Assembly: GCA_049287305.1 (NCBI GenBank)
Contig: JBAQFO010000012.1
Coordinates: 7,113-71,112 of the forward strand
DNA from: Minisyncoccia bacterium
GTDB lineage: Bacteria; Patescibacteriota; Minisyncoccia; Phycocordibacterales; UBA9973
Direction of reading: 5' to 3'
DNA length: 64,000 nucleotides
In this document: piece by piece, positions 12,314-25,470 of the stretch
Layout: the number at the start of each line of letters is the position of its first letter
Position numbering within the stretch: the first letter of the stretch is position 1
Position numbers and translations under genes: made by a program
The notes under the pieces: model-generated
Told to the model about the DNA's origin: nothing
Seen by the model: only the letters and a program-made list of their open reading frames with translations
The model's database searches: none

Positions 12314-12384
12314 CGGGCCGTAGTATACCGGTAGTACAAGTGCTTTGGGAGCATTTAGACTGGGTTCAATTCCCAGCGGCCCGA
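12314..12384 (+). tRNA. tRNA-Pro (anticodon TGG)
   Basis: Cloverleaf by hand: acceptor cgggccg/cggcccg, anticodon loop tttggga, T-arm ctggg-ttcaatt-cccag. No encoded CCA. Confidence 0.8.
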
Positions 12385-12388
12385 CATT

Positions 12389-12459
12389 GCGGGATTAGTT
12401 TAATGGTAAAATAACAGTTTTCCAAACTGTGGTTGGGAGTTCGATTCTCCCATCCCGCA
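12389..12459 (+). tRNA. tRNA-Gly (anticodon TCC)
   Basis: Acceptor gcgggat/atcccgc, anticodon stem acagt/actgt with loop tttccaa, T-arm gggag-ttcgatt-ctccc. Sits 4 nt after tRNA-Pro. Confidence 0.85.
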
Positions 12460-12473
12460 CAGAGTAAGGGACA

Positions 12474-12496
12474 AAAAGCAAATTTATTTGCTTTTG
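12474..12496 (+). terminator. Intrinsic terminator after the tRNA-Pro/tRNA-Gly pair
   Basis: aagcaaat-tt-atttgctt hairpin followed by TTTTG. Confidence 0.5.
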
Positions 12497-12568
12497 AGGA
12501 GATTCGAAAGATTTTTTGCTGTAGTGAGCTTGTCGAATCTACCAAAAAATACCTGGCTATGTAATAGC

Positions 12569-12588
12569 CGATTCTCCCATCCCGCACA
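12569..12588 (+). repeat. 20-nt direct repeat of the tRNA-Gly(TCC) 3' end (att-like remnant)
   Basis: cgattctcccatcccgcaca occurs at 12442-12461 (inside the tRNA) and again at 12569-12588, preceded by the small hairpin ggctatgtaatagcc. Confidence 0.6.
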
Positions 12589-12592
12589 ACAT

Positions 12593-13714
12593 TTAAGCAG
12601 CAGCTTTTTTAACTTCTTCAATCGAGTCGCCTTCAGCGACTACTTCCAAATTCTTATTTAATCTTCTAAATTTCCCTCCTTCTTTGCGAGGTTTGAGGAT
12701 GATGTCGTCTGAAACTTTTCCCCCTGTGCTCCAGCTTGAGTGTATACCCCAAGAAACAGATTCTTCAACATAAAAACCCGTTTCATCTTCAAACATAAGT
12801 GTTCCATCTTCTAACAAAATATTGTAGCCGAAGCCTGCTCTTACGACAGCTCGAGTCTTTGTATCATTCGGTACATATTCACCTATTTTGTGTAAAATTA
12901 TTGCATTTTTGTCTAGAATATAAATGTTATTGTCATGTTTTACCATCCATAAATTTCCCACGCTTGGTATTATTGGGTTATCGTATTCCTTAGATAGTTT
13001 CCCTGTTTCTGCGGAGAAAAGTCTATATTTAATGTCACCGAAAAAACCTCCATAAGTCACAATAACCGCGCTATCTTTCCGGACGCTACCTATTGCAGGA
13101 ATTTCTTGTTTAACGACTTCATGCCCCTGCTGATCGACAACAAAGTAACCATCTTGTTTGTTACCGACTATGCTAAAGCGGCCTACCGATTCAAACTTTG
13201 CTCTCATGGCCTCACCTCCCCTATTCTCGTAAATTTCTTTTTGCACAGCTTCTTTAAACTTTTCTTTATCCAAAAATTCTAAATTCGGAAATGTATTATC
13301 TATCTCATAAACTTTTTTACATAAATCAGAAATTGTATTTATGTCGTGCTCCAACAATTCAACGAACTCCTCCTGTGCAATATTAGCTAAAAAAAGCTCA
13401 ACAGCCTGTCGTATTTGGGTTACAAGATCATCGTATTCTTTAAATTTAACTAATTTTTCTGAGCTGTTCTCCTCGTTCTCATGCTTCGCCTGGTAGTTTA
13501 CGACACACTCATCAACTTGAGATAAAAATTGAGGCGCGAGTTCGGCTAACTGTTCTATCTTTTTCCTATTCTGTAATTCTTTTTTTTCTTGTTCTGCTAA
13601 AAAATCAGATCTCGTTACGGGGCCAAAATCAGTCGCACCGCGGATTATCGCTTCCTCTACCTCTTTTATATTCTGGTTACTATTTTCAGTATTCAAAAAG
13701 TTTTCTAAAGGCAT
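12593..13714 (-). CDS. Hypothetical protein
   Basis: 373-aa ORF with an acidic helical N-terminus and a Gly/Trp-containing beta-rich C-terminal half. No recognised motif. Confidence 0.55.
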   Translation of the reverse strand: MPLENFLNTENSNQNIKEVEEAIIRGATDFGPVTRSDFLAEQEKKELQNRKKIEQLAELAPQFLSQVDECVVNYQAKHENEENSSEKLVKFKEYDDLVTQIRQAVELFLANIAQEEFVELLEHDINTISDLCKKVYEIDNTFPNLEFLDKEKFKEAVQKEIYENRGGEAMRAKFESVGRFSIVGNKQDGYFVVDQQGHEVVKQEIPAIGSVRKDSAVIVTYGGFFGDIKYRLFSAETGKLSKEYDNPIIPSVGNLWMVKHDNNIYILDKNAIILHKIGEYVPNDTKTRAVVRAGFGYNILLEDGTLMFEDETGFYVEESVSWGIHSSWSTGGKVSDDIILKPRKEGGKFRRLNKNLEVVAEGDSIEEVKKAAA

Positions 13715-13744
13715 ATCAAGATCATATCACATCTTAAGTCTAAG

Positions 13745-14185
13745 TTACAAAATAACGTCACTGACTACTTTTATCTTTGCTTTTTTGTCTTTTAGGCTCA
13801 AAAATACAACCAATAAATCTACCTGCCACTCTTTTTCGTTAGGCACTTTTTTAGATAAAAGATATGTTTGAATTGTCCGGGACAGCCTCTTTTGTTTCCA
13901 GGGATGCATATTGTCTTCTGGATGATATTGGTCCAGGGTTTCATGCCCGCCTAGACTCGAGTTAGTCGAGGCTGGTGTAACCATTTCCAGGCTTTGTTTT
14001 GAAACTGATTTTACTTCCACAAAATGTATTTTATTGTCTTTCTCAGCAATTACGTCTATTTCACCCCATTTTTCAGTGAAGTTTCTTTCTAAAATTAAAA
14101 AATTATGTTTCATGAGAAACTTTACCGCCACGTTTTCCCCAATCTCTCCCACTTTTTGACTTTCGGAAGTAAATTTTTTAGGCAT
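13745..14185 (-). CDS. yraN: YraN/UPF0102 family putative endonuclease
   Basis: GEIGENVAVKFL...ILERNF...GEIDVIAEKDNKIHFVEVKS matches the UPF0102 core, with a roughly 40-aa insertion. Confidence 0.7.
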   Translation of the reverse strand: MPKKFTSESQKVGEIGENVAVKFLMKHNFLILERNFTEKWGEIDVIAEKDNKIHFVEVKSVSKQSLEMVTPASTNSSLGGHETLDQYHPEDNMHPWKQKRLSRTIQTYLLSKKVPNEKEWQVDLLVVFLSLKDKKAKIKVVSDVIL

Positions 14186-14421
14186 TTGAGTTATATTTCA
14201 CAAAACATCCCCAGTTTCACATGGAACATGTTTCACGTGAAACACTTAACTATATTTTAATGTCTTTTATCAAAATATCCTTATTTTACAATGCGTTTCT
14301 ATAAAAACAGGGGTCTTTTACAGGTTTTCAAAAGTGTCCTTTATAAACATTACCAACAGAGTTATCCACAGTTGTGCATAAAATCCTTATAAAGCTGGAT
14401 TTTTCTAAAGGACATCACTAA

Positions 14422-14495
14422 TGGTGCGGCCAGGGAGAATCGAACTCCCGTCTCATCCTTGGCAAGGACGTGTTCTACCACTAAACCATGACCGC
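14422..14495 (-). tRNA. tRNA-Gly (anticodon GCC), CCA encoded
   Basis: Reverse complement folds into a cloverleaf: gcggtca...tggccgc-acca, anticodon loop ttgccaa, T-arm gggag-ttcgatt-ctccc. Confidence 0.85.
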
Positions 14496-14626
14496 TAAAA
14501 AATAACCTTTTCATTATAGTATGTCTGTATGACTAATGCAATTAGCAAACAAGCTTGTAAAATAAGCCTTATTTGCCAATTTTATTATAATAGTGTAATA
14601 TATACGTATTAGTAAGTGATTAATTA

Positions 14627-14698
14627 GCACCCGTAGTGAAATGGATATCACAACAGTCTTCGGAACTGTCGTTGGGGGTTCGAATCCCTCCGGGTGCA
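14627..14698 (+). tRNA. tRNA-Arg (anticodon TCG)
   Basis: Acceptor gcacccg/cgggtgc, anticodon stem acagt/actgt with loop cttcgga, T-loop ttcgaat. Confidence 0.8.
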
Positions 14699-14708
14699 CA
14701 AAAGTAAA

Positions 14709-16262
14709 ATGGACTCTTCGAAAAACTTAATAGAAAAAATCCCCAAACAAGTTTCACATGTAACCACAACCTTAGAAAAGGCTGGTTTTGAGGCGTTCCT
14801 GGTGGGCGGATGCGTTAGGGACCTAATCATGGACAGGGAACCAAAGGACTGGGATATCACCACCAATGCAAAGCCAGAACAAATAATGGCATTGTTTGAG
14901 AAAACCGTATATGAGAATACTTTTGGGACCGTGGGGGTCTGCGTTCCGCGTGAAACGGAAAAAAGTGTTTCACATGTAACGCGAAAAGAGGAGGTTACTC
15001 ATGAAACATTCGAATATGATATTATTGAGGTGACTCCCTATAGAATTGAGACAAAATATAGCGATTTTAGACATCCGGACGAAGTCCGATTTAGCGATAA
15101 GCTTGAAGATGACCTTAAAAGACGTGACTTCACAGTCAATGCCTTAGCATTAAGAATTAGCGATAATTCTAAAGGACATGTAGTGGACCTATTTGGAGGC
15201 ATAAAGGACATAAAGGACAAAACATTAAAAGCCGTGGGGGAGGCGGATGATAGATTTTCGGAGGATGCGCTCCGAATGTTGCGAGCAGTGCGCTTCGCTT
15301 GCCAACTTGATTTTTCTGTGTCGTATGAAGTAACCCAAAGTATTGTAAAAAATTCGGAATTAATAAAAAAAATATCGGCTGAAAGAATTCGTGACGAGCT
15401 TGTAAAAATAATTATGTCAAAAAATTCCGCGAGTGGAATTACTATGCTCTCTAAATTCGGATTGTTAAAAAATATTATTCCGGAGCTTGAAGAGGGGATA
15501 GGGTGTGACCAATCCGGAGAACATATTTATGATGTGTGGACGCACTTACTTATGGCTATGCAGCATGCCGGGGACAAGAATTGGCCTTTAGAAATAAGGC
15601 TCTCCGCGCTGTTTCACGATATAGGCAAACCCCGAACGAGAAGGCTTGCTGAAGATAAAACCAAAAAAATGTATACGTTTTACGGACACGAAGTGGTGGG
15701 CGCCAGGATGACGAAAAAAATAATGGAGCGATTAAAGTTTCCGAAAAAAGAAATTGATTTCGTGGAAAAAATGGTGCGTAGCCACATGTTCTTTTCCGAT
15801 ACGGAACTCATTACTCTTTCCGCTGTGCGAAGAATTATTGCTAAAGTTGGAAAAGAAAATATCTGGCTCTTGATGAATGTGCGGGAGTGCGACCGAGTTG
15901 GCATGAAGAAAAAAGAAGCGCCGTATCGTCTGCGCAAGTATTTTGCGATGATAGAAGAGGCGCTCCGTGATCCGATATCGGTCAACCAGCTTAAAGTTGA
16001 CGGAGAGTTTATGATAAAAGAGCTTGAAATCAAACCTGGTCCCCGCATGGGCTGGATTTTGCACGCACTTTTAGAAGAAGTGCTGGATGCGCCGGAGAAA
16101 AACACAGTGGAGCATCTGTCCGACCTGGTAAAATCCCTGAACATGCTCGGCGATGCTGAACTAAAAGCCCTAGGGGAACGAGGGAAAGAGAAGAAAGAAG
16201 AATTAGAAGAGAAAGAGGTAGAAAAATTGCATTCCAAGCACGGAGTGAGGAAAAATTCGTAA
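14709..16262 (+). CDS. cca: CCA-adding enzyme / tRNA nucleotidyltransferase with HD domain
   Basis: GGCVRDLIMDREPKDWDITT Pol-beta nucleotidyltransferase head plus HD region (HDIGKP). Start taken at the ATG right after tRNA-Arg; the track's upstream GTG overlaps the tRNA. Contains insertions encoding a VSHVT repeat. Confidence 0.85.
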   Translation: MDSSKNLIEKIPKQVSHVTTTLEKAGFEAFLVGGCVRDLIMDREPKDWDITTNAKPEQIMALFEKTVYENTFGTVGVCVPRETEKSVSHVTRKEEVTHETFEYDIIEVTPYRIETKYSDFRHPDEVRFSDKLEDDLKRRDFTVNALALRISDNSKGHVVDLFGGIKDIKDKTLKAVGEADDRFSEDALRMLRAVRFACQLDFSVSYEVTQSIVKNSELIKKISAERIRDELVKIIMSKNSASGITMLSKFGLLKNIIPELEEGIGCDQSGEHIYDVWTHLLMAMQHAGDKNWPLEIRLSALFHDIGKPRTRRLAEDKTKKMYTFYGHEVVGARMTKKIMERLKFPKKEIDFVEKMVRSHMFFSDTELITLSAVRRIIAKVGKENIWLLMNVRECDRVGMKKKEAPYRLRKYFAMIEEALRDPISVNQLKVDGEFMIKELEIKPGPRMGWILHALLEEVLDAPEKNTVEHLSDLVKSLNMLGDAELKALGERGKEKKEELEEKEVEKLHSKHGVRKNS

Positions 16263-16701: not shown

Positions 16702-17490
16702 GTGAACGAACCCATAAATGAATTAAAAGTTTTGCTTTTAGAAATGGATTTTTCTGCGAAGGAGGCGGATGTGTATTTAGCAATTTTATCTCTGGGTCGA
16801 GGCACAGCATCGAAAATAGCTCGCGAGGCGCATATTCTTCGAACAACTGTCTATGAAATTTTAAGTTCTTTGTTTTCTAAAGGGTTGGTTACACTCTCAG
16901 GAAAAGAACCAAAACAAGAGTATGTTGCCGAGTCTCCGGACAATTTAAAAATTTATATTTCTAAACAGTTAGAGAAGAAACAAACAGATTTGAAACAAGC
17001 AGAGTCAATTTTAATTCCTCAGCTGAAGGCTAGGCACAATTTAGGCAACAGGCCGAAGGTGATGTTCTATGAAGGACGAGAAGGATTAGAAAAAGTTTAC
17101 GAAGATACACTTACCTCAAAAGAAACCATCAGAGTTTACGCGAACTTAGAACCGATGAATGCAGGGTTACCGGGATATTTCCCGGAATATTTCAAAAGAC
17201 GCACCAGACTTGGCATCGGCGTCCGAGCCATAGGGCCCAGAACAGAAGCTAATATTGAATTAGTTAAGAGAGATGCCGAAGAAAAACGTGAGACGGCTTT
17301 AGTGCCGAAAGATAAATATGACTTTTCTCCGGAAATAAATATTTATGACAACAAAGTAATGATAGCGTCATGGAAAGAAAAGCTCGGAATTATAATTGAG
17401 AGCCATGAAATAACTGATGCAATGAAAAAAGTTTTTGAACTGGCGTGGGCAGAGGCGAAAAGGTTGGATAAAGAAATAGAAAGTAATTAA
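16702..17490 (+). CDS. TrmB-family transcriptional regulator
   Basis: N-terminal wHTH ADVYLAILSLGRGTASKIAREAHILRTTVYEILSSLFSKGLV typical of TrmB-like regulators. Its stop overlaps the convergent Cys-rich gene. Confidence 0.75.
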   Translation: MNEPINELKVLLLEMDFSAKEADVYLAILSLGRGTASKIAREAHILRTTVYEILSSLFSKGLVTLSGKEPKQEYVAESPDNLKIYISKQLEKKQTDLKQAESILIPQLKARHNLGNRPKVMFYEGREGLEKVYEDTLTSKETIRVYANLEPMNAGLPGYFPEYFKRRTRLGIGVRAIGPRTEANIELVKRDAEEKRETALVPKDKYDFSPEINIYDNKVMIASWKEKLGIIIESHEITDAMKKVFELAWAEAKRLDKEIESN

Positions 17491-19178
17491 TAAACTTCCT
17501 GCTGATAGCAAGTTTCACAGTAAACTGTCTCCGGTCGGTCAGGGGAGCAAGAGGACATTATTTCTTTTTTACATTTAACGCAACTTCTTTGCCAAAGTTT
17601 CATAGGATTTCGCCTACTCAAACGTTCAAAATGTCGACAGTTCGGACATAAAATCGGCAGAGGAATTTTCATTTTTCTATAAAACTGTAATTCATTTGGA
17701 ATTATCTTAAAAGCCTGTGTACACTGATGGGTGCATTTTTGCTCATGATCGCAAGCTATAACTTCTTCGGTTATTGAATCTTTTACCATGGTTATGTTGT
17801 CGGGAACATCTTTGGTCTGAATAGTAACGTTGTAGGATCGAGCCTCATCATCTCCCCAAAAAAAGCCCATTTTTAAGGATTCCTCTTTGGTAATAGGGAA
17901 GTATTCCTGTGCCGTGCTCTCATTGTAAGGAATAGATGAAAGTTCACTAGGAAAAAATTCTCCGTATCCGTAAGAAAGCCCTCGCTGGTCTTTATATGGA
18001 TTTTTCAACATTCCATCTTTAATAATTTTCACGAGTTCATGAAATTTTTCCTTAGAGTATTTTTTATTGAGTATGCAATATTCTTTTGAGCGTAAACCTA
18101 CACATCCAAACAAAAATCCAGATGATTGGCAAAAAAGCCCGTATTCTATATCGTGCGAAGAATCGGTGTGAATTAAGAATTTACAATTATTTACCTCTTC
18201 TGGGCTTACGCCCTCATATACAAGTTCGCTGCCACCCATTCCAAAAACATCAGAAATATCCTTACTTGAAAAAACCCAAGAGCTATATCTTGCTTTCTCA
18301 AGATTGAATCCATCAAAAACATAGTAGCAATCTTTAGCATTTTCCAAATGATCCCCGACACAATTTACGCAATTTACTTGCTTGGTATTTCTTACTATTG
18401 AATTCTTTTTGATATTTTCGAATTTATCTAACAGATCGTTGCGAGTTTTTCTAGAGCCTAGGTCAAGCTCACCAATTTTTTCTTTATAACTTTCTGGAGA
18501 AAGTTTTTTACCAAAAAAATAATTACTTACAGAACGCAAATTGACTCCTCCGATAGAGTTCGTTATATTTCTGCTCGAAGCAAGGTAATGGCTGTCTACT
18601 ACAGCTTCTCCTTCCTCAATAAATGTACTTCCGTAGGACTTATCTACGTTTAAACATTCATAAAGATTTTCAGAATAATGCGAATAGGTTGAGTCGTAAG
18701 TGTTTTTTAAAGCTACAGCACGAGCTACATATGCCGAATCCTCACTATCTCTAAAACCATACGATAAGTAAGTATTTTTATTTGCGTAAGAAATATTTGT
18801 GTAATCAGAGTTAGTGCATTGCACTATCCATATGCCAAGTCTAGGAACTTTAACCAATAAATCTTTTATTTGCGCAAAGAAAGTTTTAGACTTGTCATAA
18901 TCTATGCCGTAAGCCATAGGGTCCCAAGCATCACTTGTATAGCAGGTATGGCAATATACAGGGAACGATACGTCACTTCGGTATACGGATATAAAATCTT
19001 TTTTACACAAATCACACTGACGTTTGTGCAGACTACGCTCGTTACGCCAGGAAAATCTTCTTTGTGCTCTACAGTCGGGGCAAAAAGTAGGGAATGGCAC
19101 GCTTATTTTCTTGTAGAAATTTAAGTCTTCACTCTTTAGCGTGAAGTCCTTTTTGCAGTTTTGGCAATTCTTTTCCAT
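17487..19178 (-). CDS. Cys-rich protein with N- and C-terminal double zinc-ribbon modules (paralog B)
   Basis: 563 aa with CxxC pairs at both ends (CQNCKKDF...FCPDCRAQRR...CDLCKKDF...YCHTCY and ...LCPNCRHFERL...CVKCKK...VYCETCYQQEVY). Paralogous to 20277..22049. Confidence 0.7.
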   Translation of the reverse strand: MEKNCQNCKKDFTLKSEDLNFYKKISVPFPTFCPDCRAQRRFSWRNERSLHKRQCDLCKKDFISVYRSDVSFPVYCHTCYTSDAWDPMAYGIDYDKSKTFFAQIKDLLVKVPRLGIWIVQCTNSDYTNISYANKNTYLSYGFRDSEDSAYVARAVALKNTYDSTYSHYSENLYECLNVDKSYGSTFIEEGEAVVDSHYLASSRNITNSIGGVNLRSVSNYFFGKKLSPESYKEKIGELDLGSRKTRNDLLDKFENIKKNSIVRNTKQVNCVNCVGDHLENAKDCYYVFDGFNLEKARYSSWVFSSKDISDVFGMGGSELVYEGVSPEEVNNCKFLIHTDSSHDIEYGLFCQSSGFLFGCVGLRSKEYCILNKKYSKEKFHELVKIIKDGMLKNPYKDQRGLSYGYGEFFPSELSSIPYNESTAQEYFPITKEESLKMGFFWGDDEARSYNVTIQTKDVPDNITMVKDSITEEVIACDHEQKCTHQCTQAFKIIPNELQFYRKMKIPLPILCPNCRHFERLSRRNPMKLWQRSCVKCKKEIMSSCSPDRPETVYCETCYQQEVY

Positions 19179-19182
19179 GTCT

Positions 19183-20310
19183 TTATTTATTACTGACTTT
19201 TTTCTCTTTGAAAAATTCTCGAGGGGACAGTTTATACACTTGTTCGTACTTTGTCCTACCAGTGTTTACGATAAGTATCTTTGCGTCTTTTGGGATTTCT
19301 TTTTTCATCTGTAAAAGTATTGCTAACCCCGCTATCCCAGAATATTCGCAGTCAATATTTTCGGACTTGGCTAGATTGTATGCTTGGTCTAAGTATTTTT
19401 CTTCTAAAAGGTAGACTCCTGATTTACTCCCACAAAAACCTGCGTAGCGATAAAACTGAATCCACTGTTCGTCAAAATGCACAAAAGGCAAATGAGGAGA
19501 GTAAAGCTTGTCAGCTTTAGAGCGAGGGTTGTTCGTAGTTGCTCCTATAAAGTTGCAATTTCTAAGTTTCTCAATATTTCCCTGGAAGCGGGGGTCTTGG
19601 ATAGCCGTGGAAACTTCTTTTTTATTAACGTTCAATATGTTTTCGTAAAGATTCCCGGTTCCGAAAGGAATGAAGCAGTAATCAGGAGAGTTGTTAATCG
19701 TTTCGTAGCTTAGCCAATCATAAAAGCGAGTAGCCGGATCTAGCGCTTCATTAGAAGTTATGTCAAAGCCAGAAGGATTGTTAGTTAGCGCTAGGATATC
19801 TCTGAACTGCAGTGGAGCTTTGCTTAAATTTGTCTCGTAAATTTCACAGCCAATAATTCTAATAGCTGTTAAAATATTTTGATCAATATTTGTATCTACA
19901 AGAACTTTTAAGTTAGGTAATCCGTATTTTTTAAGTTGTGTCTGGATAGCAAAGGCTGCAGAACCGGAAGAAATTATAGACATAGCAGGCAGCGGCCCTT
20001 TAATTTGTCCACGTTCTTTTGCCAACAAAAAATCGCGATAGGTAACGATTATTTCCCACGCCATTCTATCTTTATGAGTACCGGTAGGATTTTCACTTTC
20101 ATCTTTTAACCAGACGTTTGAAAATTCGGGAACTCTTATTTTAATAGTAGGAGTAGCTGGAAATTTTGGGTTGTCAGCAGGAAATTCAGGTTTTGCGGGG
20201 TTATTTTCCGAAGCTATGTGTATAGATTCCAATATTTTCTTCTCTTCTTTAGTTAAATATGCCATATACCCATATTCTAATAGACTTCTTGTTGATAGCA
20301 AGTTTCGCAA
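19183..20310 (-). CDS. PLP-dependent fold-type-II enzyme (threonine synthase/cysteine synthase-like)
   Basis: ENPTGTHKDRMAWE equals the xNPTGSFKDR PLP-lysine motif. 375 aa, with Gly-rich loops GTGNL and SGSAAFA. Confidence 0.7.
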   Translation of the reverse strand: MRNLLSTRSLLEYGYMAYLTKEEKKILESIHIASENNPAKPEFPADNPKFPATPTIKIRVPEFSNVWLKDESENPTGTHKDRMAWEIIVTYRDFLLAKERGQIKGPLPAMSIISSGSAAFAIQTQLKKYGLPNLKVLVDTNIDQNILTAIRIIGCEIYETNLSKAPLQFRDILALTNNPSGFDITSNEALDPATRFYDWLSYETINNSPDYCFIPFGTGNLYENILNVNKKEVSTAIQDPRFQGNIEKLRNCNFIGATTNNPRSKADKLYSPHLPFVHFDEQWIQFYRYAGFCGSKSGVYLLEEKYLDQAYNLAKSENIDCEYSGIAGLAILLQMKKEIPKDAKILIVNTGRTKYEQVYKLSPREFFKEKKVSNK

Positions 20311-22049
20311 TAAACAATCTCTTTGCGGTCGGGAGAGTAAGGGGTTTGAAACTCATTTTCGCATGCGGAATATTTATGAGGATGCTCCCTCGTGTTTTTA
20401 TAAATTTTATTTGAGGAATTTGCGCCATCGCATTGGCATTTTCGGCTATATAGTTTTGGTAAATTTCTTTTCTGAATTCTTTCGTAATATCGGCAGTTGT
20501 AGCACAAGCGAGGCAGGGGAATGTTCATTTTTTTGTAAAAATCGAGTTCATTTTGCGTTATTTTATATGCTTTGGTGCATTGATGAGTGCATTGGCCTTT
20601 ATGGCTACAGCCAATTATTTTTTCAGTGATAGAGATGTCTATTTCGCGGAGTGAGTCCGGTAAGTCACCGGAATTTATATCACTTTTATGGTCTTTGTAT
20701 ATTTTTTCCCGCCAAAAGTAACCCTTGGCGGTTGCTTCTTCTTGGGTAAGCGGGAAAAGTTCTTGGGAAACTGTTTCGTTATAGCCAAAAGGGGAAAGGT
20801 CGGTCGGGAAATAATCCCCATATTCATACACCCTTCCATTCTTGTCTTTATAGGGTAAGTCATCCATGAATTTTATCAATTTAGGCACAAGCTCCGCGTA
20901 TTCTTCTTTGGAATATTGCTTATTTAAAATGCAGTAATTTTTATCTCGAAGCCCCACACATCCGAAGAGGTTGGAGCAACCATGGCAATTATATGAATAA
21001 TAAATATCGTGGGAGTTAAATATGAATCTAGAGAAAAAGACCTTATTGCCAGGGTAAACCGTAGAAGTATTGTAGCAGTCTTCGGAATTGGTTCCGCAAT
21101 GGTCACAGTCGTAGGAATTATTGATTTCCGAATAAGCGAGCCAGATATTGCCATAATCTTTTGCGCCGCCGAAAATGCCAAAACAATTACTACAGTTTTT
21201 TGCATTTTCCATGTTGTCACCAGTGGAATTTGTTGATTTTATAATCCGCGCAAACTTGTGAGGGTAGTTTAAAATGAACTCCTCAAATTTCTTTTTGAAT
21301 TTTTCAACTTGAGAAAAAGAAGACAGGTCTAACCCTTTCAGTTTTTCCTCGTAGGTTTCTTTGTCTAGTTGTTCGTTGAAAAAACAGTACGAAGCATTCC
21401 GCAGGTTTACACATCCGAAGCAATTGCTGCAGTTTTTGCAGTTAAAAAGGAAAGCCGAATCCAGGCACGAGTCGCACTCCCTGCTGTATGTAAGGCGAGA
21501 GCAGGAAATACAGTCAGAGCTCTCATAGCTCAAGTCGCTTTTAGAAACCCAATGTAAGTCTACGCTATCTTTGGTGTTGAAAGTGAAAGCCGAATACATT
21601 ACGTTCTCGTTAAAATCTCCACCCACTACGAGGTAACAATTCTTGTTTCCTTCTGTAATGCTGCAGAAATCGCTATTTACCGGATTTATGTTCATGAGAG
21701 CCACATCCGGGACCTTCCTCCATAGCGTTTTCAGCTGTTCAAATAAGGGTTTACCGAAGTCTATGTCTTGTCCGTATTCCATTACGTCCCAAGAGTCTCC
21801 CCACCAAGTTTTGTGGTCATAAACTTTTTGATCCGAGTCGGGAGAAAATATAGAAAATATCTCTTTTTCCTGCCCCGGTGCGTCGGACTTTCGTTTGTAA
21901 AGAGTTCTTTCGTTCCGAAAGAGCATTCTTTCTTGCAGGCGACAATCAAAACACAATTTTGGGGTCGGAACTTTTATTTTTTCATAAAAAACAAGCTCTT
22001 CCTTTTCTACTTCAAAATTATTTTTACAATTTTGACAAACTTTCCGCAT
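20277..22049 (-). CDS. Cys-rich protein with N- and C-terminal double zinc-ribbon modules (paralog A)
   Basis: 590 aa with the same terminal modules as paralog B and an identical C-terminal VYCETCYQQEVY. Central heptad-like Cys/Ser/Asn repeats and the block FGCVGLRDKNYCILNKQYSKEEY. Confidence 0.7.
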   Translation of the reverse strand: MRKVCQNCKNNFEVEKEELVFYEKIKVPTPKLCFDCRLQERMLFRNERTLYKRKSDAPGQEKEIFSIFSPDSDQKVYDHKTWWGDSWDVMEYGQDIDFGKPLFEQLKTLWRKVPDVALMNINPVNSDFCSITEGNKNCYLVVGGDFNENVMYSAFTFNTKDSVDLHWVSKSDLSYESSDCISCSRLTYSRECDSCLDSAFLFNCKNCSNCFGCVNLRNASYCFFNEQLDKETYEEKLKGLDLSSFSQVEKFKKKFEEFILNYPHKFARIIKSTNSTGDNMENAKNCSNCFGIFGGAKDYGNIWLAYSEINNSYDCDHCGTNSEDCYNTSTVYPGNKVFFSRFIFNSHDIYYSYNCHGCSNLFGCVGLRDKNYCILNKQYSKEEYAELVPKLIKFMDDLPYKDKNGRVYEYGDYFPTDLSPFGYNETVSQELFPLTQEEATAKGYFWREKIYKDHKSDINSGDLPDSLREIDISITEKIIGCSHKGQCTHQCTKAYKITQNELDFYKKMNIPLPRLCYNCRYYERIQKRNLPKLYSRKCQCDGANSSNKIYKNTREHPHKYSACENEFQTPYSPDRKEIVYCETCYQQEVY

Positions 22050-22063
22050 GGATTTTTATGAGA

Positions 22064-22723
22064 TTAAAACTTCTTGAAAAATTTGTTGATGATATGCATG
22101 CTCATGTGAGAGAAATTGAAAAGCACGGCGGCGGTGAAAAGCCCCAAGGACAGATTTTTGTTTATAAAAGACAGGAGAATTGCCAGGAAGGCAAAAAATG
22201 CCGGAACAAAAATACGAATTGTGCCACGGTGGATTTCTTGACGGCTCACCTCAATATTTTTAATGTGTTCGGATTTGAAGATGTATCCTCTAATCCAGAA
22301 AAGGCAGAGACCAATGATTATGGTGTGGATGCCGAAAATAATTATTGCGAGCTGGTTGTTGTTGTATCTGCCCAGGAGGGAAGTAGAAAATGGAATGAGG
22401 GTGATGAAGAGAAAGAAAATAGCATTGATGTTCGTCAAATTTCTATCAATATTTTTTGCATAAACTGAAACAAAGAAATGATGCGCCCGCCAATAAGTGA
22501 AGAGGAGAGAAAAAGAAAGCAGATAGGACATGAAAGCAGGAAGCATGTATTTTATTGTGAAGTAAAGTTCGCGAGTGTTGTTGGGGCTTACCAGGTCCGG
22601 TGCTTTGATATCAAAAACAAGGATAGTCATGACGATGGCGAATATGCCGTCTGCGAGCTGTTCTAGTCTTGCTGGTTTCATGCTTAAAATATACCATATA
22701 TTTAAGTATGTTAAAATAAGCAA
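22064..22723 (-). CDS. DUF1211/TMEM175-like putative potassium channel membrane protein
   Basis: RLEQLADGIFAIVMTILVFDI matches the TMEM175-family signature helix. 6 TM segments. Confidence 0.7.
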   Translation of the reverse strand: MLILTYLNIWYILSMKPARLEQLADGIFAIVMTILVFDIKAPDLVSPNNTRELYFTIKYMLPAFMSYLLSFSLLFTYWRAHHFFVSVYAKNIDRNLTNINAIFFLFITLIPFSTSLLGRYNNNQLAIIIFGIHTIIIGLCLFWIRGYIFKSEHIKNIEVSRQEIHRGTIRIFVPAFFAFLAILLSFINKNLSLGLFTAAVLFNFSHMSMHIINKFFKKF

Positions 22724-23497
22724 ATGAAAATCGGGATTTTTGATTCGGGCTTAGGCGGACTTATTGTGGCGAAAGCCATCCGAAAATCTCTGCCGAAATA
22801 CGACTATGTATACTTAGGAGATACCAAGCGGGTGCCCTATGGCAATCGTTCACACGACACCGTGCTTCAATTTACCAGGGAATGTGTGAATTACCTATTT
22901 GAAAAAGAGGCTTGCGGAATTGTCATCCTGGCCTGCAATACGGCCTCGGCTCGAGCCTTAAGGGAACTACAAAAAGAGTTCAAAAACAGAAAAATTTTGG
23001 GAGTTTTAATTCCGGCGGCAGAAAAAGCGGCGCAATTCAATAACATCGGAATTTTGGCTACAGCAGGCACAGTTGCCTCCGGTTCTTTTCCGCGAGAAAT
23101 AAAAAAATTGAACAAGAAAGCAAAAGTTATTCAAGTTGCCGCGCCAATGCTAGTGCCGCTGGCGGAAGCGGGGGAGAGCAAAAATGCAGTTCCTTTTTTA
23201 AAGAAGTATTTAGCTCCGTTTAAAAATAAAAAATTTGAAACACTAGTGCTGGGCTGCACTCACTATCCTTTGTATAAAAAAGAAATCAAAAAACTTTTAC
23301 CCAGGGTAAAAATAATTTCTCAGGATGAAATAGTTCCGGTAAAGTTAAAAAATTATTTGGCTAGGCACGAAGAGATATCAAAAAAGCTCTCCACGAACAA
23401 AACAGCAAAAATTCTAGTCACGGACGAAACCCAAACGGTAGATGTCCTTGCTCGCAAATGGTTTAGGGGTGTGAAAACACGCTTAATTAAGTTGTAA
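22724..23497 (+). CDS. murI: Glutamate racemase
   Basis: IGIFDSGLGGL, ACNTASA and GCTHYP motifs. Confidence 0.9.
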   Translation: MKIGIFDSGLGGLIVAKAIRKSLPKYDYVYLGDTKRVPYGNRSHDTVLQFTRECVNYLFEKEACGIVILACNTASARALRELQKEFKNRKILGVLIPAAEKAAQFNNIGILATAGTVASGSFPREIKKLNKKAKVIQVAAPMLVPLAEAGESKNAVPFLKKYLAPFKNKKFETLVLGCTHYPLYKKEIKKLLPRVKIISQDEIVPVKLKNYLARHEEISKKLSTNKTAKILVTDETQTVDVLARKWFRGVKTRLIKL

Positions 23498-23680: not shown

Positions 23681-23729
23681 TCATTGACAACTGAAGAGAG
23701 AGTCTACCCCAAAAAGAAAGGACCTTACC

Positions 23730-24173
23730 ATGAGCAAAATTACCCTTCTGGAGAAGAAGGAAATTATTGCAGTCACGCCGCATGTTCGCTTCGTGGCTTC
23801 CGATTTCTTTCGTGGTTGGCAAGTTGGTTTGAATTTTGAGAATCTGTTCCTTGGTGTTGTTGAAGAAACAGGTGGACAGTCAGTCGAGATTGAATTGCAC
23901 GACCTTTCCGAGTGGTTGGTAAACGGTCCAATCATTGAGGAGTTGGGTGGGGCGTCAAAGACGGGTATCTCTCTGGCGACCTTCGCCGCAATCGCTGCGA
24001 CCGGATGCTCCTTCGTTGCCCACGTTCTTGACGAGGACAGCAAACCCTGGGCAGTTTTCTATCGCCAAGAAGGGGCGCAGCATGTCGCCGGAGCGGATTC
24101 CACCGACTACAAATATTGGTGGTATGGCGGCGGGCGGTTTGCTTCTCCGCATCTCACCCCGTGTATTCTCTGA
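23730..24173 (+). CDS. Hypothetical protein (GC-rich island gene 1)
   Basis: 147-aa ORF with a GC-rich codon profile and an upstream AAGAAAGGA ribosome-binding site. Confidence 0.5.
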   Translation: MSKITLLEKKEIIAVTPHVRFVASDFFRGWQVGLNFENLFLGVVEETGGQSVEIELHDLSEWLVNGPIIEELGGASKTGISLATFAAIAATGCSFVAHVLDEDSKPWAVFYRQEGAQHVAGADSTDYKYWWYGGGRFASPHLTPCIL

Positions 24174-24287
24174 CAATTGGTTTACTAAATAGAAACACAT
24201 GCGTGTAGTTTGTGTGTTCACCTGACTGAGTGTGGGTTTCCTGCACTTTCCATTAACTCCGGTAACGCCAAAAAAGGAGGTGAAAAC

Positions 24288-24497
24288 ATGAACCGCAACA
24301 ACGAAGAGACGTTCGAACTGGAGTGCCGACATCTCGTCCAATTGCTCCGGCAAGAAGAGGGGTTGTCTCTGCAAGATCTGCAGGATCAGGACAACCCTGT
24401 CGCGCTCGAGCTGGTGGAAGACTTCTGTGAAGAGGCTGGAATCTCTCGAGAGTGGTTCGAGGGGTTCGTGGGTCGGATGATTCTAGCGCTCAATTGA
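24288..24497 (+). CDS. Small acidic protein (GC-rich island gene 2), paralog of gene 3
   Basis: Start at the internal ATG, 5 nt after AAGGAGGTG. Product MNRNNEETFELECRHLVQLLRQ...DNPVALELVEDFCEEAGISREWFEGFV. Confidence 0.5.
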   Translation: MNRNNEETFELECRHLVQLLRQEEGLSLQDLQDQDNPVALELVEDFCEEAGISREWFEGFVGRMILALN

Positions 24498-24698
24498 GCG
24501 TACGGGAGAAGCACCGCTTCCGCCGACAACAATCGCACGCCCGCAGACGCGTAGTTTGCTGGGCATTGCAATTGGATATTGGTTTAACCAATATCTTCCA
24601 TCAACCTGGGTTCTGGCTCAGTTCAAACTGAGCTGCAGTGCGAGTCGCTCTAACAAAGCGACTCGCACTGCCCCAAAACTGCGTGAAAGGAGAAGCAG

Positions 24699-25106
24699 AT
24701 GCACAGCAATTCCACCCTCAACATCCTCAACGAGGAAGCCGCCGAGCGAGAGCTCCGAGGGCGACGGACCAGCAAGCAGTGCGAGTCGCTTGAGTGGCAA
24801 TGCCGGCTACTCGCCAACGTGCTCGCCGCCTGCTGCCTGACCATCAGCGAACTCGAGGATGACCCGACCTCAACCGACCGTGTCGCAGAAATTTTCTGCC
24901 ACGACACTGGTCTCGAGCGGGGAGACTTCGATCGTCTCGTTCAGGACGTGCGCGCCACGCTTGCCTCGGCGAGCCGGAAGCTGAGAGATACGTCTCTCAG
25001 GTTCCGCGGGAGTGGAGGTCGGCACCGAAACCTCGACGAGGTTGAGCGTCAGCCCGACCCCCTGGGACGTACTCGGGCTCAGTATGGCTGGTGGCCGAAA
25101 GACTGA
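24699..25106 (+). CDS. Hypothetical protein (GC-rich island gene 3), paralog of gene 2
   Basis: AAAGGAGAAG ribosome-binding site. The segment ...LEWQCRLLANVL...DDPTSTDRVAEIFCHDTGLERGDFDRLV aligns with gene 2. Confidence 0.5.
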   Translation: MHSNSTLNILNEEAAERELRGRRTSKQCESLEWQCRLLANVLAACCLTISELEDDPTSTDRVAEIFCHDTGLERGDFDRLVQDVRATLASASRKLRDTSLRFRGSGGRHRNLDEVERQPDPLGRTRAQYGWWPKD

Positions 25107-25181
25107 GCTGCAGCACGGGTCGTTGGATGACCAGCGATCCGTGCTGCCCCACTACCACTTCAAATGTAAGGGGCACAAGAC

Positions 25182-25448
25182 ATGACACGCAAAGTAGAAA
25201 ACGACAGCGATGCAGAAAGTCTCCACAAGAGGCTCCAGCAGATCAATGGGGTGCGTAAGCAGCACGGAGAAAACGACAAAACCATCGCTGCGCTGACAGA
25301 ATCTCTCTCGCATGACGGTTTCTCGGACGAGGGAGAAGCTTGGAATACACTGGTAGAGTACTATCAAACTCACCGTCGCGTTGAAAAGATTTACGTGGCA
25401 GATCGACCTCTGTTTCCAGACGGCAGAAAGTCGTGGTATCCGCTGTAG
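25182..25448 (+). CDS. Hypothetical protein (GC-rich island gene 4)
   Basis: 88-aa ORF with an upstream AAGGGG ribosome-binding site. Confidence 0.45.
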   Translation: MTRKVENDSDAESLHKRLQQINGVRKQHGENDKTIAALTESLSHDGFSDEGEAWNTLVEYYQTHRRVEKIYVADRPLFPDGRKSWYPL

Positions 25449-25470
25449 AACTACTCAACAATCATCGAAA

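Follow-up and report, generated by a model that had tools for sequence, protein, structure and literature searches.

Two paralogous cysteine-rich genes, designated cysA and cysB, lie on the minus strand of a 64,000-nucleotide (nt) stretch of contig JBAQFO010000012.1 from a Minisyncoccia bacterium (the whole stretch is called the window below), on either side of a gene for a pyridoxal 5'-phosphate (PLP) enzyme. Their products belong to a very large family of cytoplasmic proteins which, as judged from the named matches, appears to be confined to the Patescibacteria (Minisyncoccia/Paceibacteria). The family has a pseudo-symmetric architecture, with a basic treble-clef double-finger module at each end, made up of a zf_Tbcl-type and a CxxC-x17-CxxC zf_Tbcl_2-type finger, two halves of a narrow beta-solenoid with 12 residues per turn, and an acidic middle domain. 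Its recurrent partners are two soluble P-loop ATPases resembling TraD, VirD4, TrwB and HerA, here called X1a and X1b, and in a broad clade of Paceibacteria these genes lie close together on one strand in the cassette dnaK-X1a-C(0-3)-X1b-dnaJ, where C is a family gene. The PLP gene of the window is a lineage-specific insertion between the members of the tandem pair, not their partner. This descriptive core, including the exclusion of the PLP enzyme, is held with high confidence; the mechanism proposed below, in which the proteins act as adaptors or clients of the ATPases and Hsp70, is tentative, and the explanation as a whole is given a probability of about 0.5.

The cysA and cysB proteins can be aligned end to end with 40% identity (BLASTP, E = 3e-139), their final 12 residues, VYCETCYQQEVY, are the same, and the last 45 nt of the two genes are still recognisably similar. 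The first-pass annotation of this DNA was thus right in calling them paralogs with identical C-termini and visible identity at the 3' ends of the genes. It also placed a double zinc-ribbon module at both termini of both proteins, which holds fully for cysB. In cysA there is a single N-terminal finger of the zf_Tbcl type (C5-x2-C8-x24-C33-x2-C36) followed by an Arg-rich helix, CRxxxRxxxRNER; the second is degenerate, the next cysteine after positions 5, 8, 33 and 36 being at 129, and a second N-terminal CxxC-x17-CxxC finger is present in cysB only. The C-terminal module of cysA begins with an expanded first knuckle (C481/H483/C487/C491) and C516-x2-C519, after which comes a zf_Tbcl_2-like finger (C538, C540, C563, C581-x2-C584). 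The likeness of the N- and C-terminal modules, noted at the outset, is confirmed by hhalign (residues 1-85 against 478-590: probability 99.7%, E = 1.4e-25); this comparison, as well as the spectral and property analyses, is based on an alignment of 179 family members. The two central halves, residues 141-262 and 263-398, are likewise homologous to each other (99.9%, E = 3.7e-37). Each of them closes with the motif FGCVxLRxKxYCIxNxQYSKEEY and a helix, so the conserved FGCV block described earlier is real, and it is found twice (as FGCVxLRxKxYCIxNxxYSKEE) because the central region is internally duplicated.

A central solenoid with periodic cysteines had been suggested as well, with a repeat of about seven residues. 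The beta-solenoid has stood up, the period has not: spectra of conservation and hydrophobicity give 12-12.5 residues in both halves, which rules out a seven-residue repeat, and the strands of the model also recur every 12 residues (184-187, 196-199, 208-211 and 220-223). When the first half of cysA is written in 12-residue rungs, its CxxC motifs stack: three rungs in a row have their cysteines at positions 4 and 7 (C180/183, C192/195 and C204/207), and C210/213 follows. The central cluster, C195...C204-x2-C207-x2-C210-x2-C213, is kept in 83-95% of the family members and lost in cysB. Conservation is highest in the fingers, in both cap motifs and in residues 361-440, and lowest in the solenoid rungs; the conserved loop 113-150 has the lowest confidence in both structure models. 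The residues that are conserved are for the most part Cys, aromatics, Asn and Gly recurring at equivalent points of the repeats (those other than Cys largely do so, as in N225/N376 and D164/D314), together with the Arg residues R37, R41, R520 and R524 on the finger helix after the second knuckle. A family protein has a median of 34 Cys, and cysteine makes up 5-6% of cysA and cysB. The finger modules are basic (median isoelectric points, pI, of 8.4 and 8.5), all that lies between them is acidic, and the whole protein has a pI of 6.3. Transmembrane or hydrophobic segments were found in none of the 179 members.

The Cys-rich proteins could not at first be assigned to any characterised family, and profile searches bear this out. 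In Pfam, NCBIfam, PHROGs and PADLOC there is no curated family for cysA or cysB, and the window proteins gave only sub-threshold matches to fingers (18.4 against a cut-off of 27 for PF23477, 15 against 24 for PF13451, and 18.8 against 36 for TIGR04272). When 35 members were searched against Pfam, zf_Tbcl was matched by seven and zf_Tbcl_2 by five (E <= 1), and nothing else recurred. The terminal fingers share their Cys spacing and the motif xPxxPxxxxxVYCxxC with zf_Tbcl (PF13451), zf_Tbcl_2 (PF23477) and TIGR04272; in the window proteins two CxxC knuckles, about 17-25 residues apart, are present along with the flanking motif. However, proteins of the zf_Tbcl type, including Methanosarcina mazei A00184 and A01980, are free-standing small proteins or single fingers, whereas the present family has four fingers capping a 590-residue solenoid protein and scores under the curated cut-offs. 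Small Methanosarcina proteins that have a CxxC-x17-CxxC finger bind zinc, as determined by inductively coupled plasma mass spectrometry (PMC12704099), and this was the only relevant paper in the literature searched for the family, the Pfam names, and insertions in the dnaK operon of the candidate phyla radiation (CPR).

Searches of the PDB with a single sequence and a profile, and with Foldseek, returned no matches. In comparisons with known solenoids the first structure model scored 5.6 with the spruce-budworm antifreeze protein and 4.7 with the ryegrass ice-binding protein, and the second scored 6.0 with curli CsgA, 5.7 with the ryegrass protein, 5.5 with phi29 gp12, 3.1 with TmAFP, and up to 4.6 with left-handed beta-helix acyltransferases. 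The narrow Cys-containing ice-binding solenoids compared were TmAFP of Tenebrio (1ezg), CfAFP of spruce budworm (1m8n) and the ryegrass protein (3ult). A 12-residue coil with in-register Cys is common to cysA and the TmAFP-type solenoids; the family differs from these antifreeze proteins, which are secreted and disulfide-bonded, and gives no significant fold match to them. That the proteins might be beta-helix enzymes, like the hexapeptide-repeat acyltransferases or the gamma-carbonic anhydrases, is given next to no weight: there is no Hexapep or other catalytic Pfam match, the period is 12 and not 18 residues, and no His/Asp/Glu/Ser constellation or other catalytic signature was seen among the conserved family residues, which belong to structural repeats.

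More than 6,452 relatives, all named "hypothetical", were found by a word-indexed search. In an exhaustive hidden Markov model search of 1.84 billion cluster representatives (50% identity), 4,702 clusters passed an E-value threshold of 1e-3 and 2,070 passed one of 1e-30; their lengths are nearly uniform (545-600 residues). All data come from metagenome-assembled genomes or metagenome sequences. The named matches are all from Patescibacteria lineages (Minisyncoccia, Paceibacterota, Nomura-, Lipton- and Staskawicz-bacteria, and others) bar one, the 2.2-kb contig L001 (CAYZAZ010000094.1). It carries a 77% identical cysA ortholog under the label 'uncultured Gammaproteobacteria bacterium' and is probably a mis-binned Patescibacteria contig.

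For the analysis of gene context one genome per species was scanned, up to 10 kb on either side of a family gene. The resulting 79 loci contain 197 family copies, with at least two copies in 44 loci and at least four in 18; the maximum is 12 copies in one locus of 21.8 kb. Neighbouring copies are on the same strand in 117 of 118 pairs, and in 79 of these 117 the gap is at most 150 nt. Two overlapping loci, L014 and L040, from the single-cell genome AH-259-L05 (JALLOO010000001.1, 1-29000) together hold 16 copies in 29 kb. This array is broken once by a 392-residue protein, which on reading by eye resembles a P-loop ATPase, and one of its copies is apparently disrupted, being seen as a tblastn match with no intact open reading frame (ORF). 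The best match lies in another genome for 141 of 153 proteins, the best paralog within the genome has a median identity of 45%, and the cysA orthogroup is conserved at 55-78% across candidate phyla. The genes cysA and cysB are thus an anciently duplicated tandem pair, and a model of recent duplication or an arms race was rejected, as the paralogs are older than the genomes compared. No match to the family was found in phage genomes by tblastn, and no association with phages or mobile elements was detected; the PADLOC defence models matched neither cysA nor cysB nor the PLP enzyme.

Clustering of all flanking ORFs identified X1 as the commonest neighbour of the family, with 51 ORFs in 33 of the 79 loci. 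Of these ORFs, 29 directly adjoin a family gene on the same strand, with gaps mostly of 3-76 nt to a downstream family gene and of 25-132 nt to an upstream one. The X1 proteins exceed the Pfam cut-offs for TrwB_AAD_bind, TraG-D_C, T4SS-DNA_transf and DUF87/HerA, carry Walker A and B motifs, and match weakly the TraD, VirD4 and CedD models and the TrwB structures; their PADLOC matches, to mad8 and HerA, are weak and at superfamily level only. The Pfam domains and Walker motifs are common to X1, the TrwB/TraD/VirD4 proteins and the HerA/FtsK-type ATPases, yet X1 scores far below every NCBIfam equivalog cut-off. Unlike type IV coupling proteins, X1 is not accompanied by type IV secretion system genes and lies between dnaK and dnaJ, and in the X1 representative no hydrophobic anchor is seen at the N-terminus when its sequence is read, without transmembrane prediction.

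In a reciprocal test, 80 metagenome loci were chosen on X1 alone. Their common order, on one strand, is grpE-(C)-dnaK-X1a-C(0-3)-X1b-dnaJ-(C). A family gene stands directly upstream of X1b in 46 of the 60 loci with room for it, dnaJ is the next gene downstream of X1b in 53 of 61, and dnaK was detected in 22 of the 80; 30 of 40 complete X1a...X1b intervals contain one to three family genes. In the cassette of L093 (2118-10670) the genes are separated by 71, 10, 24 and 15 nt. Across the cassette loci identity is 83-94% for X1b, 81-92% for DnaK and 62-80% for DnaJ. A gene for a PaaX-like regulator is located upstream of dnaK, and the heat-shock operator CIRCE (HrcA) occurs neither in the window nor in any of the 80 cassette loci. 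X1a has about 690-780 residues, with a long Pro/Ala/Lys-rich tail, and X1b about 500. At its C-terminus X1a bears a zf_Tbcl_2 finger (49.6 bits against a cut-off of 27; CSxCxxExTVPFKPExGRPVYCKxC), the type that closes the terminal modules of the family, in 39 of 40 complete sequences; none of 75 X1b sequences has it. The link to the window genes is closest in L107, where a 76% identical ortholog of cysB, also Cys-depleted, is flanked by X1a and X1b and lies directly upstream of the latter; dnaK and dnaJ were not detected in this locus.

A mechanism that could fit this arrangement is that the family proteins have no enzymatic activity and, as rigid bodies stapled by zinc, serve an ATPase/Hsp70 unit as adaptors or clients. 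Some 8-9 zinc sites, comprising four finger sites and the CxxC rungs of the stack, would hold the scaffold rigid; docking to the ATPase or to a polyanionic ligand would fall to the two Arg-rich finger modules, and the variable solenoid face would set the specificity of each paralog, which would explain why the arrays consist of old and diverged copies. Hsp70 and the pair of ATPases would either use the family proteins as adaptors or be needed to fold and load them. The Cys-rich zinc-finger domain of DnaJ and the zinc redox switch of Hsp33, both zinc-Cys4 centres in the Hsp70 network, are what we take to be functional analogies, and the family resembles such proteins in the co-location of its genes with dnaK and dnaJ. 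To our knowledge, it has no sequence or fold similarity to DnaJ or Hsp33, no J-domain and no CxxCxGxG repeats. A Paceibacteria machine within the Hsp70 operon, made up of two soluble TraD/VirD4-like hexameric ATPases, one of them with a CxxC-x17-CxxC finger, and a variable set of zinc-stapled solenoid adaptors or clients specific to each paralog, is possible at well below even odds. If it exists, it would be a new CPR-specific system of protein remodelling or translocation, and the genes of the window would be dispersed members of the adaptor family.

The similarity of X1 to TrwB, TraD, VirD4 and CedD, which bind and translocate DNA, also allows the view that X1 is an FtsK/TraD-like translocase and that the family proteins bind nucleic acids, clamping DNA or RNA with their Arg-rich fingers during DNA uptake, segregation, or the handling of nucleoid or RNA. 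The basic finger modules, with R37, R41, N46, R520 and R524 conserved on the post-knuckle helix, speak for this possibility, and Patescibacteria rely on scavenged nucleotides. It is nevertheless unlikely, given that the whole protein is acidic, that it contains no recognised DNA-binding domain, that the cassettes lack competence and partition genes, and that the dnaK/dnaJ context suggests proteins and not DNA; the many paralogs, too, would be left unexplained.

Since the ATPases are coupling-protein-like, the arrays could alternatively be repertoires of secreted effectors, recognised by the VirD4-like ATPases, kept export-competent by Hsp70, and delivered to a host cell. The conserved extreme C-terminus, VYCExCYQxEV, and the diversified multi-copy arrays in presumed symbionts would agree with such a role. 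It is highly unlikely, however: the lack of a hydrophobic N-terminal segment in the X1 representative, read from its sequence as described above, does not favour it, no VirB4, VirB6 or other channel genes were seen nearby, the neighbours being dnaK, dnaJ, grpE and housekeeping genes, and the old paralogs, with orthogroups conserved at 55-78%, differ from fast-evolving effectors. Moreover, metal-stapled proteins would be poor substrates for export that depends on unfolding, and the association with phages or mobile elements is missing.

The high cysteine content and the wide retention of the central cluster point in another direction, to a redox or metal function: the proteins might buffer or store Fe-S or zinc, or they might be redox-switched holdases of the Hsp33 kind that respond to oxidative stress through their Cys-metal centres and work with DnaK and DnaJ. 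The location in a chaperone operon is in line with the latter, and a CutA1 gene adjoins a family gene in all five of its occurrences (L044, 13270-13578, and four other loci), usually in the order X1-CutA1-C. These five are a small sample, probably of one lineage. The Cys-depleted cysB orthogroup is nonetheless conserved and occupies the same place in the cassette; at least some of what the family does can therefore do without the central cluster. The cluster is not a canonical ferredoxin motif, and plain storage does not require a protein of 590 residues with conserved non-Cys surfaces. This alternative is therefore regarded as decidedly unlikely.

The adaptor or client reading has several points against it. 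Neither X1 nor dnaK nor dnaJ is present in the 64 kb of the window, whose locus is not a dnaK-X1a-C-X1b-dnaJ cassette, so that cysA and cysB are connected with the cassette by orthology and family membership only; moreover, 46 of the 79 family loci lack an X1 within 10 kb. All 80 cassette loci represent one clade (X1b at least 83% identical), and their gene order is phylogenetically non-independent and could in part be inherited synteny. A place beside chaperone genes does not tell adaptors apart from clients that need help in folding or from unrelated passengers. The variability of the solenoid may stem from relaxed constraint and not from diversified specificity, the conserved C-x8-C-x2-C-x2-C-x2-C cluster could conceivably bind an Fe-S centre, and the AlphaFold2 models omit metals. 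Finally, the taxonomic restriction of the family was judged from the names of the top matches.

The middle gene had been taken for a PLP-lysine enzyme of fold type II, which proved correct. Its product contains a PALP domain (PF00291; 73.2 bits against a cut-off of 35), its nearest solved relative is the cysteine synthase CysM, and the Lys of NPTGTHKDRMA aligns with that of NPAGSVKDRAA in CysM; the domain and the aligned Schiff-base Lys are shared with the fold-type-II enzymes CysM, CysK and ThrC. It differs from them in that no NCBIfam equivalog gives more than 36 bits, against cut-offs of 167-421 (the best scores are 36 against 421 for threonine synthase and 30 against 394 for CysM). Cysteine synthase, threonine synthase and SbnA were accordingly rejected as its identity, their equivalog cut-offs being missed. 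The subfamily, an unassigned one named only 'PLP-dependent lyase/thiolase' at NCBI, is common to CPR bacteria and DPANN archaea. The enzyme of the window is 70-75% identical to proteins from DPANN archaea (Woesearchaeota, Diapherotrites, Norongarragalinales) and from many CPR bacteria; the subfamily is extremely conserved across both ultra-small radiations, in variable gene contexts.

The three genes were originally interpreted as a candidate modification or biosynthetic module, probably co-transcribed. In such a module the Cys-rich proteins would be a metal-binding scaffold, carrier or substrate for a beta-replacement or elimination reaction, for instance in cysteine or sulfur chemistry. The packing is indeed tight enough for co-transcription, with gaps of 14 nt between the TMEM175-like gene and cysA, 11 nt between cysA and the PLP gene, and 4 nt between the PLP gene and cysB, and no terminator-like sites on the minus strand fall within these gaps, the only candidates being inside the 563-codon gene. 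The kinship of the enzyme to CysM and the Cys content of the flanking proteins are in favour of such a module as well. Conserved synteny, however, is lacking, which makes the module scarcely probable. None of the 79 loci gave a tblastn match to the PLP protein in the flanks of up to 10 kb around the family genes. In the syntenic loci L090 and L002, with cysA orthologs of 75% and 76% identity, the tandem pair is directly adjacent and there is no PLP gene. L090, on a 191-kb Paceibacterota contig, has the order xth, murI, TMEM175, cysA ortholog, 575-residue paralog, CCA, UPF0102, and the paralog, 55% identical to cysB, begins 24 nt after the cysA ortholog. Co-occurrence in other CPR genomes, suggested at the outset as a check, fails from the other side, too: Cys-rich genes are absent from all seven contexts of PLP homologs (74-84% identity) that were examined, the homologs of 74-75% identity in DPANN archaea and those of 80-84% in CPR bacteria having unrelated neighbours. 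That the enzyme is shared with DPANN archaea, where the contexts examined showed no family gene, argues likewise against a module.

The route by which the PLP gene came to lie between cysA and cysB can be sketched from L172 (195-2081), where a TrmB gene is found directly upstream of an 81% identical PLP ortholog, on the same strand and next to the gene for the CCA-adding enzyme. In the window TrmB and PLP genes flank cysB. The arrangement in L172 beside the CCA gene suggests, at the level of gene order, that TrmB and PLP may have moved into the cysA-cysB pair together. The neighbourhood of the CCA gene looks like a rearrangement hotspot in which the TrmB/PLP segment and the Cys-rich pair were joined in this lineage, and TrmB and PLP may be a real regulatory pair. 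TrmB-like genes were found near family members in 6 of the 79 loci, divergently upstream in four of the six. By comparative synteny, then, the operon-like order of Cys-rich, PLP and Cys-rich genes in one genome is an accident of rearrangement.

No curated family, solved structure or searched literature describes the protein, its arrays or the dnaK-ATPase-C-ATPase-dnaJ cassette; the recognisable pieces of the family are only small treble-clef fingers and a generic solenoid. About half of the genes of CPR bacteria have no assigned function, and with its thousands of sequence clusters the family stands for a large part of CPR biology that still lacks an explanation. An array of at least 16 copies in about 29 kb would amount to some 3% of the genome if a genome of about 1 Mb is assumed. 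The wiring of conjugation-type ATPases into a dnaK-dnaJ operon yields a concrete hypothesis, open to testing on purified proteins. If its metal sites are confirmed, the fold would represent a new structural principle, a 12-residue solenoid of the cytoplasm whose CxxC rungs are stacked and whose two ends carry double zinc-finger caps.

The features of the locus are collected in Table 1. Both Cys-rich ORFs exist on the minus strand as originally called, the gaps of 4 and 14 nt and the overlap with the convergent TrmB gene (4 nt) were all correct, and a search of the window by tblastn with cysA and cysB returned these two copies alone. The supposed 34-nt overlap of the PLP gene with cysA was a longest-ORF artefact arising from a TTG start at 20310, which was rejected. 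The gene most likely begins at the ATG at 20265, which leaves the 11-nt gap and gives a product of the same length as the identical NCBI-annotated protein (P0121).

Table 1. Features of the cysA-cysB locus and segments of the encoded proteins (coordinates in the window)
Feature	Coordinates	Strand	Remarks
TrmB-type regulator gene	16702..17490	+	convergent with cysB, 4-nt overlap
cysB	17487..19178	-	563 residues, 27 Cys; paralog of cysA; member of a conserved Cys-depleted orthogroup
cysB C-terminal double-finger module	17490..17762	-	includes the canonical C533-x2-C536-x17-C554-x2-C557
cysB solenoid region	18000..18764	-	central Cys cluster of the family replaced by V193, S202, I205, S208, G211
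cysB N-terminal double-finger module	18924..19178	-	C5-x2-C8-x24-C33-x2-C36, then the canonical C55-x2-C58-x17-C76-x2-C79
Fold-type-II PLP enzyme gene	19183..20265	-	360 residues from ATG 20265; PALP domain
PLP-Lys motif of the middle gene	20059..20094	-	ENPTGTHKDRMA
cysA	20277..22049	-	590 residues, 34 Cys; NCBI: 'hypothetical protein WAV15_02520, Minisyncoccia bacterium'
cysA C-terminal basic finger module	20280..20618	-	residues 478-590; homologous to the N-terminal module
cysA acidic middle domain, highly conserved	20619..20855	-	residues 399-477; PYxDxxGxxYxYGEFFPxELSPFAYNETxAQE
cysA solenoid half B	20856..21263	-	residues 263-398; homologous to half A; cap FGCVGLRDKNYCILNKQYSKEEY, helix
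cysA solenoid half A	21264..21629	-	residues 141-262; 12-residue rungs, cap FGCVNLRNASYCFFNEQ, helix
cysA linker	21630..21794	-	residues 86-140; holds the start of the conserved 113-150 loop
cysA N-terminal basic finger module	21795..22049	-	residues 1-85
TMEM175-like channel gene	22064..22723	-	14 nt upstream of cysA

The adjacency of the TMEM175-like gene is kept beside the cysA orthologs in L002, L006 and L090, which makes it a case of local synteny. The listed TTG start of this gene at 22723 abuts the divergent murI start at 22724; translation more plausibly begins at an internal ATG 14 codons on (MKPARLEQ..., at about 22681), and there is a promoter-like site at 22714-22686. Scans with Rfam and for tRNAs detected four tRNA genes in the window and no other RNA genes. 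These four, Pro-TGG, Gly-TCC, Gly-GCC and Arg-TCG, form a cluster at 12314-14699, just upstream of the gene for the CCA-adding enzyme (14694-16262). Between murI and xth there is a 1.7-kb island (23700-25450) with a GC content of 50-62%, compared with about 40% in the genome; it contains short ORFs without a significant Pfam match (Peptidase_M2 scores far below the cut-off) and has no Rfam match. As murI and xth are only about 100 nt apart in the syntenic L090, the island is interpreted as an insertion of foreign DNA.

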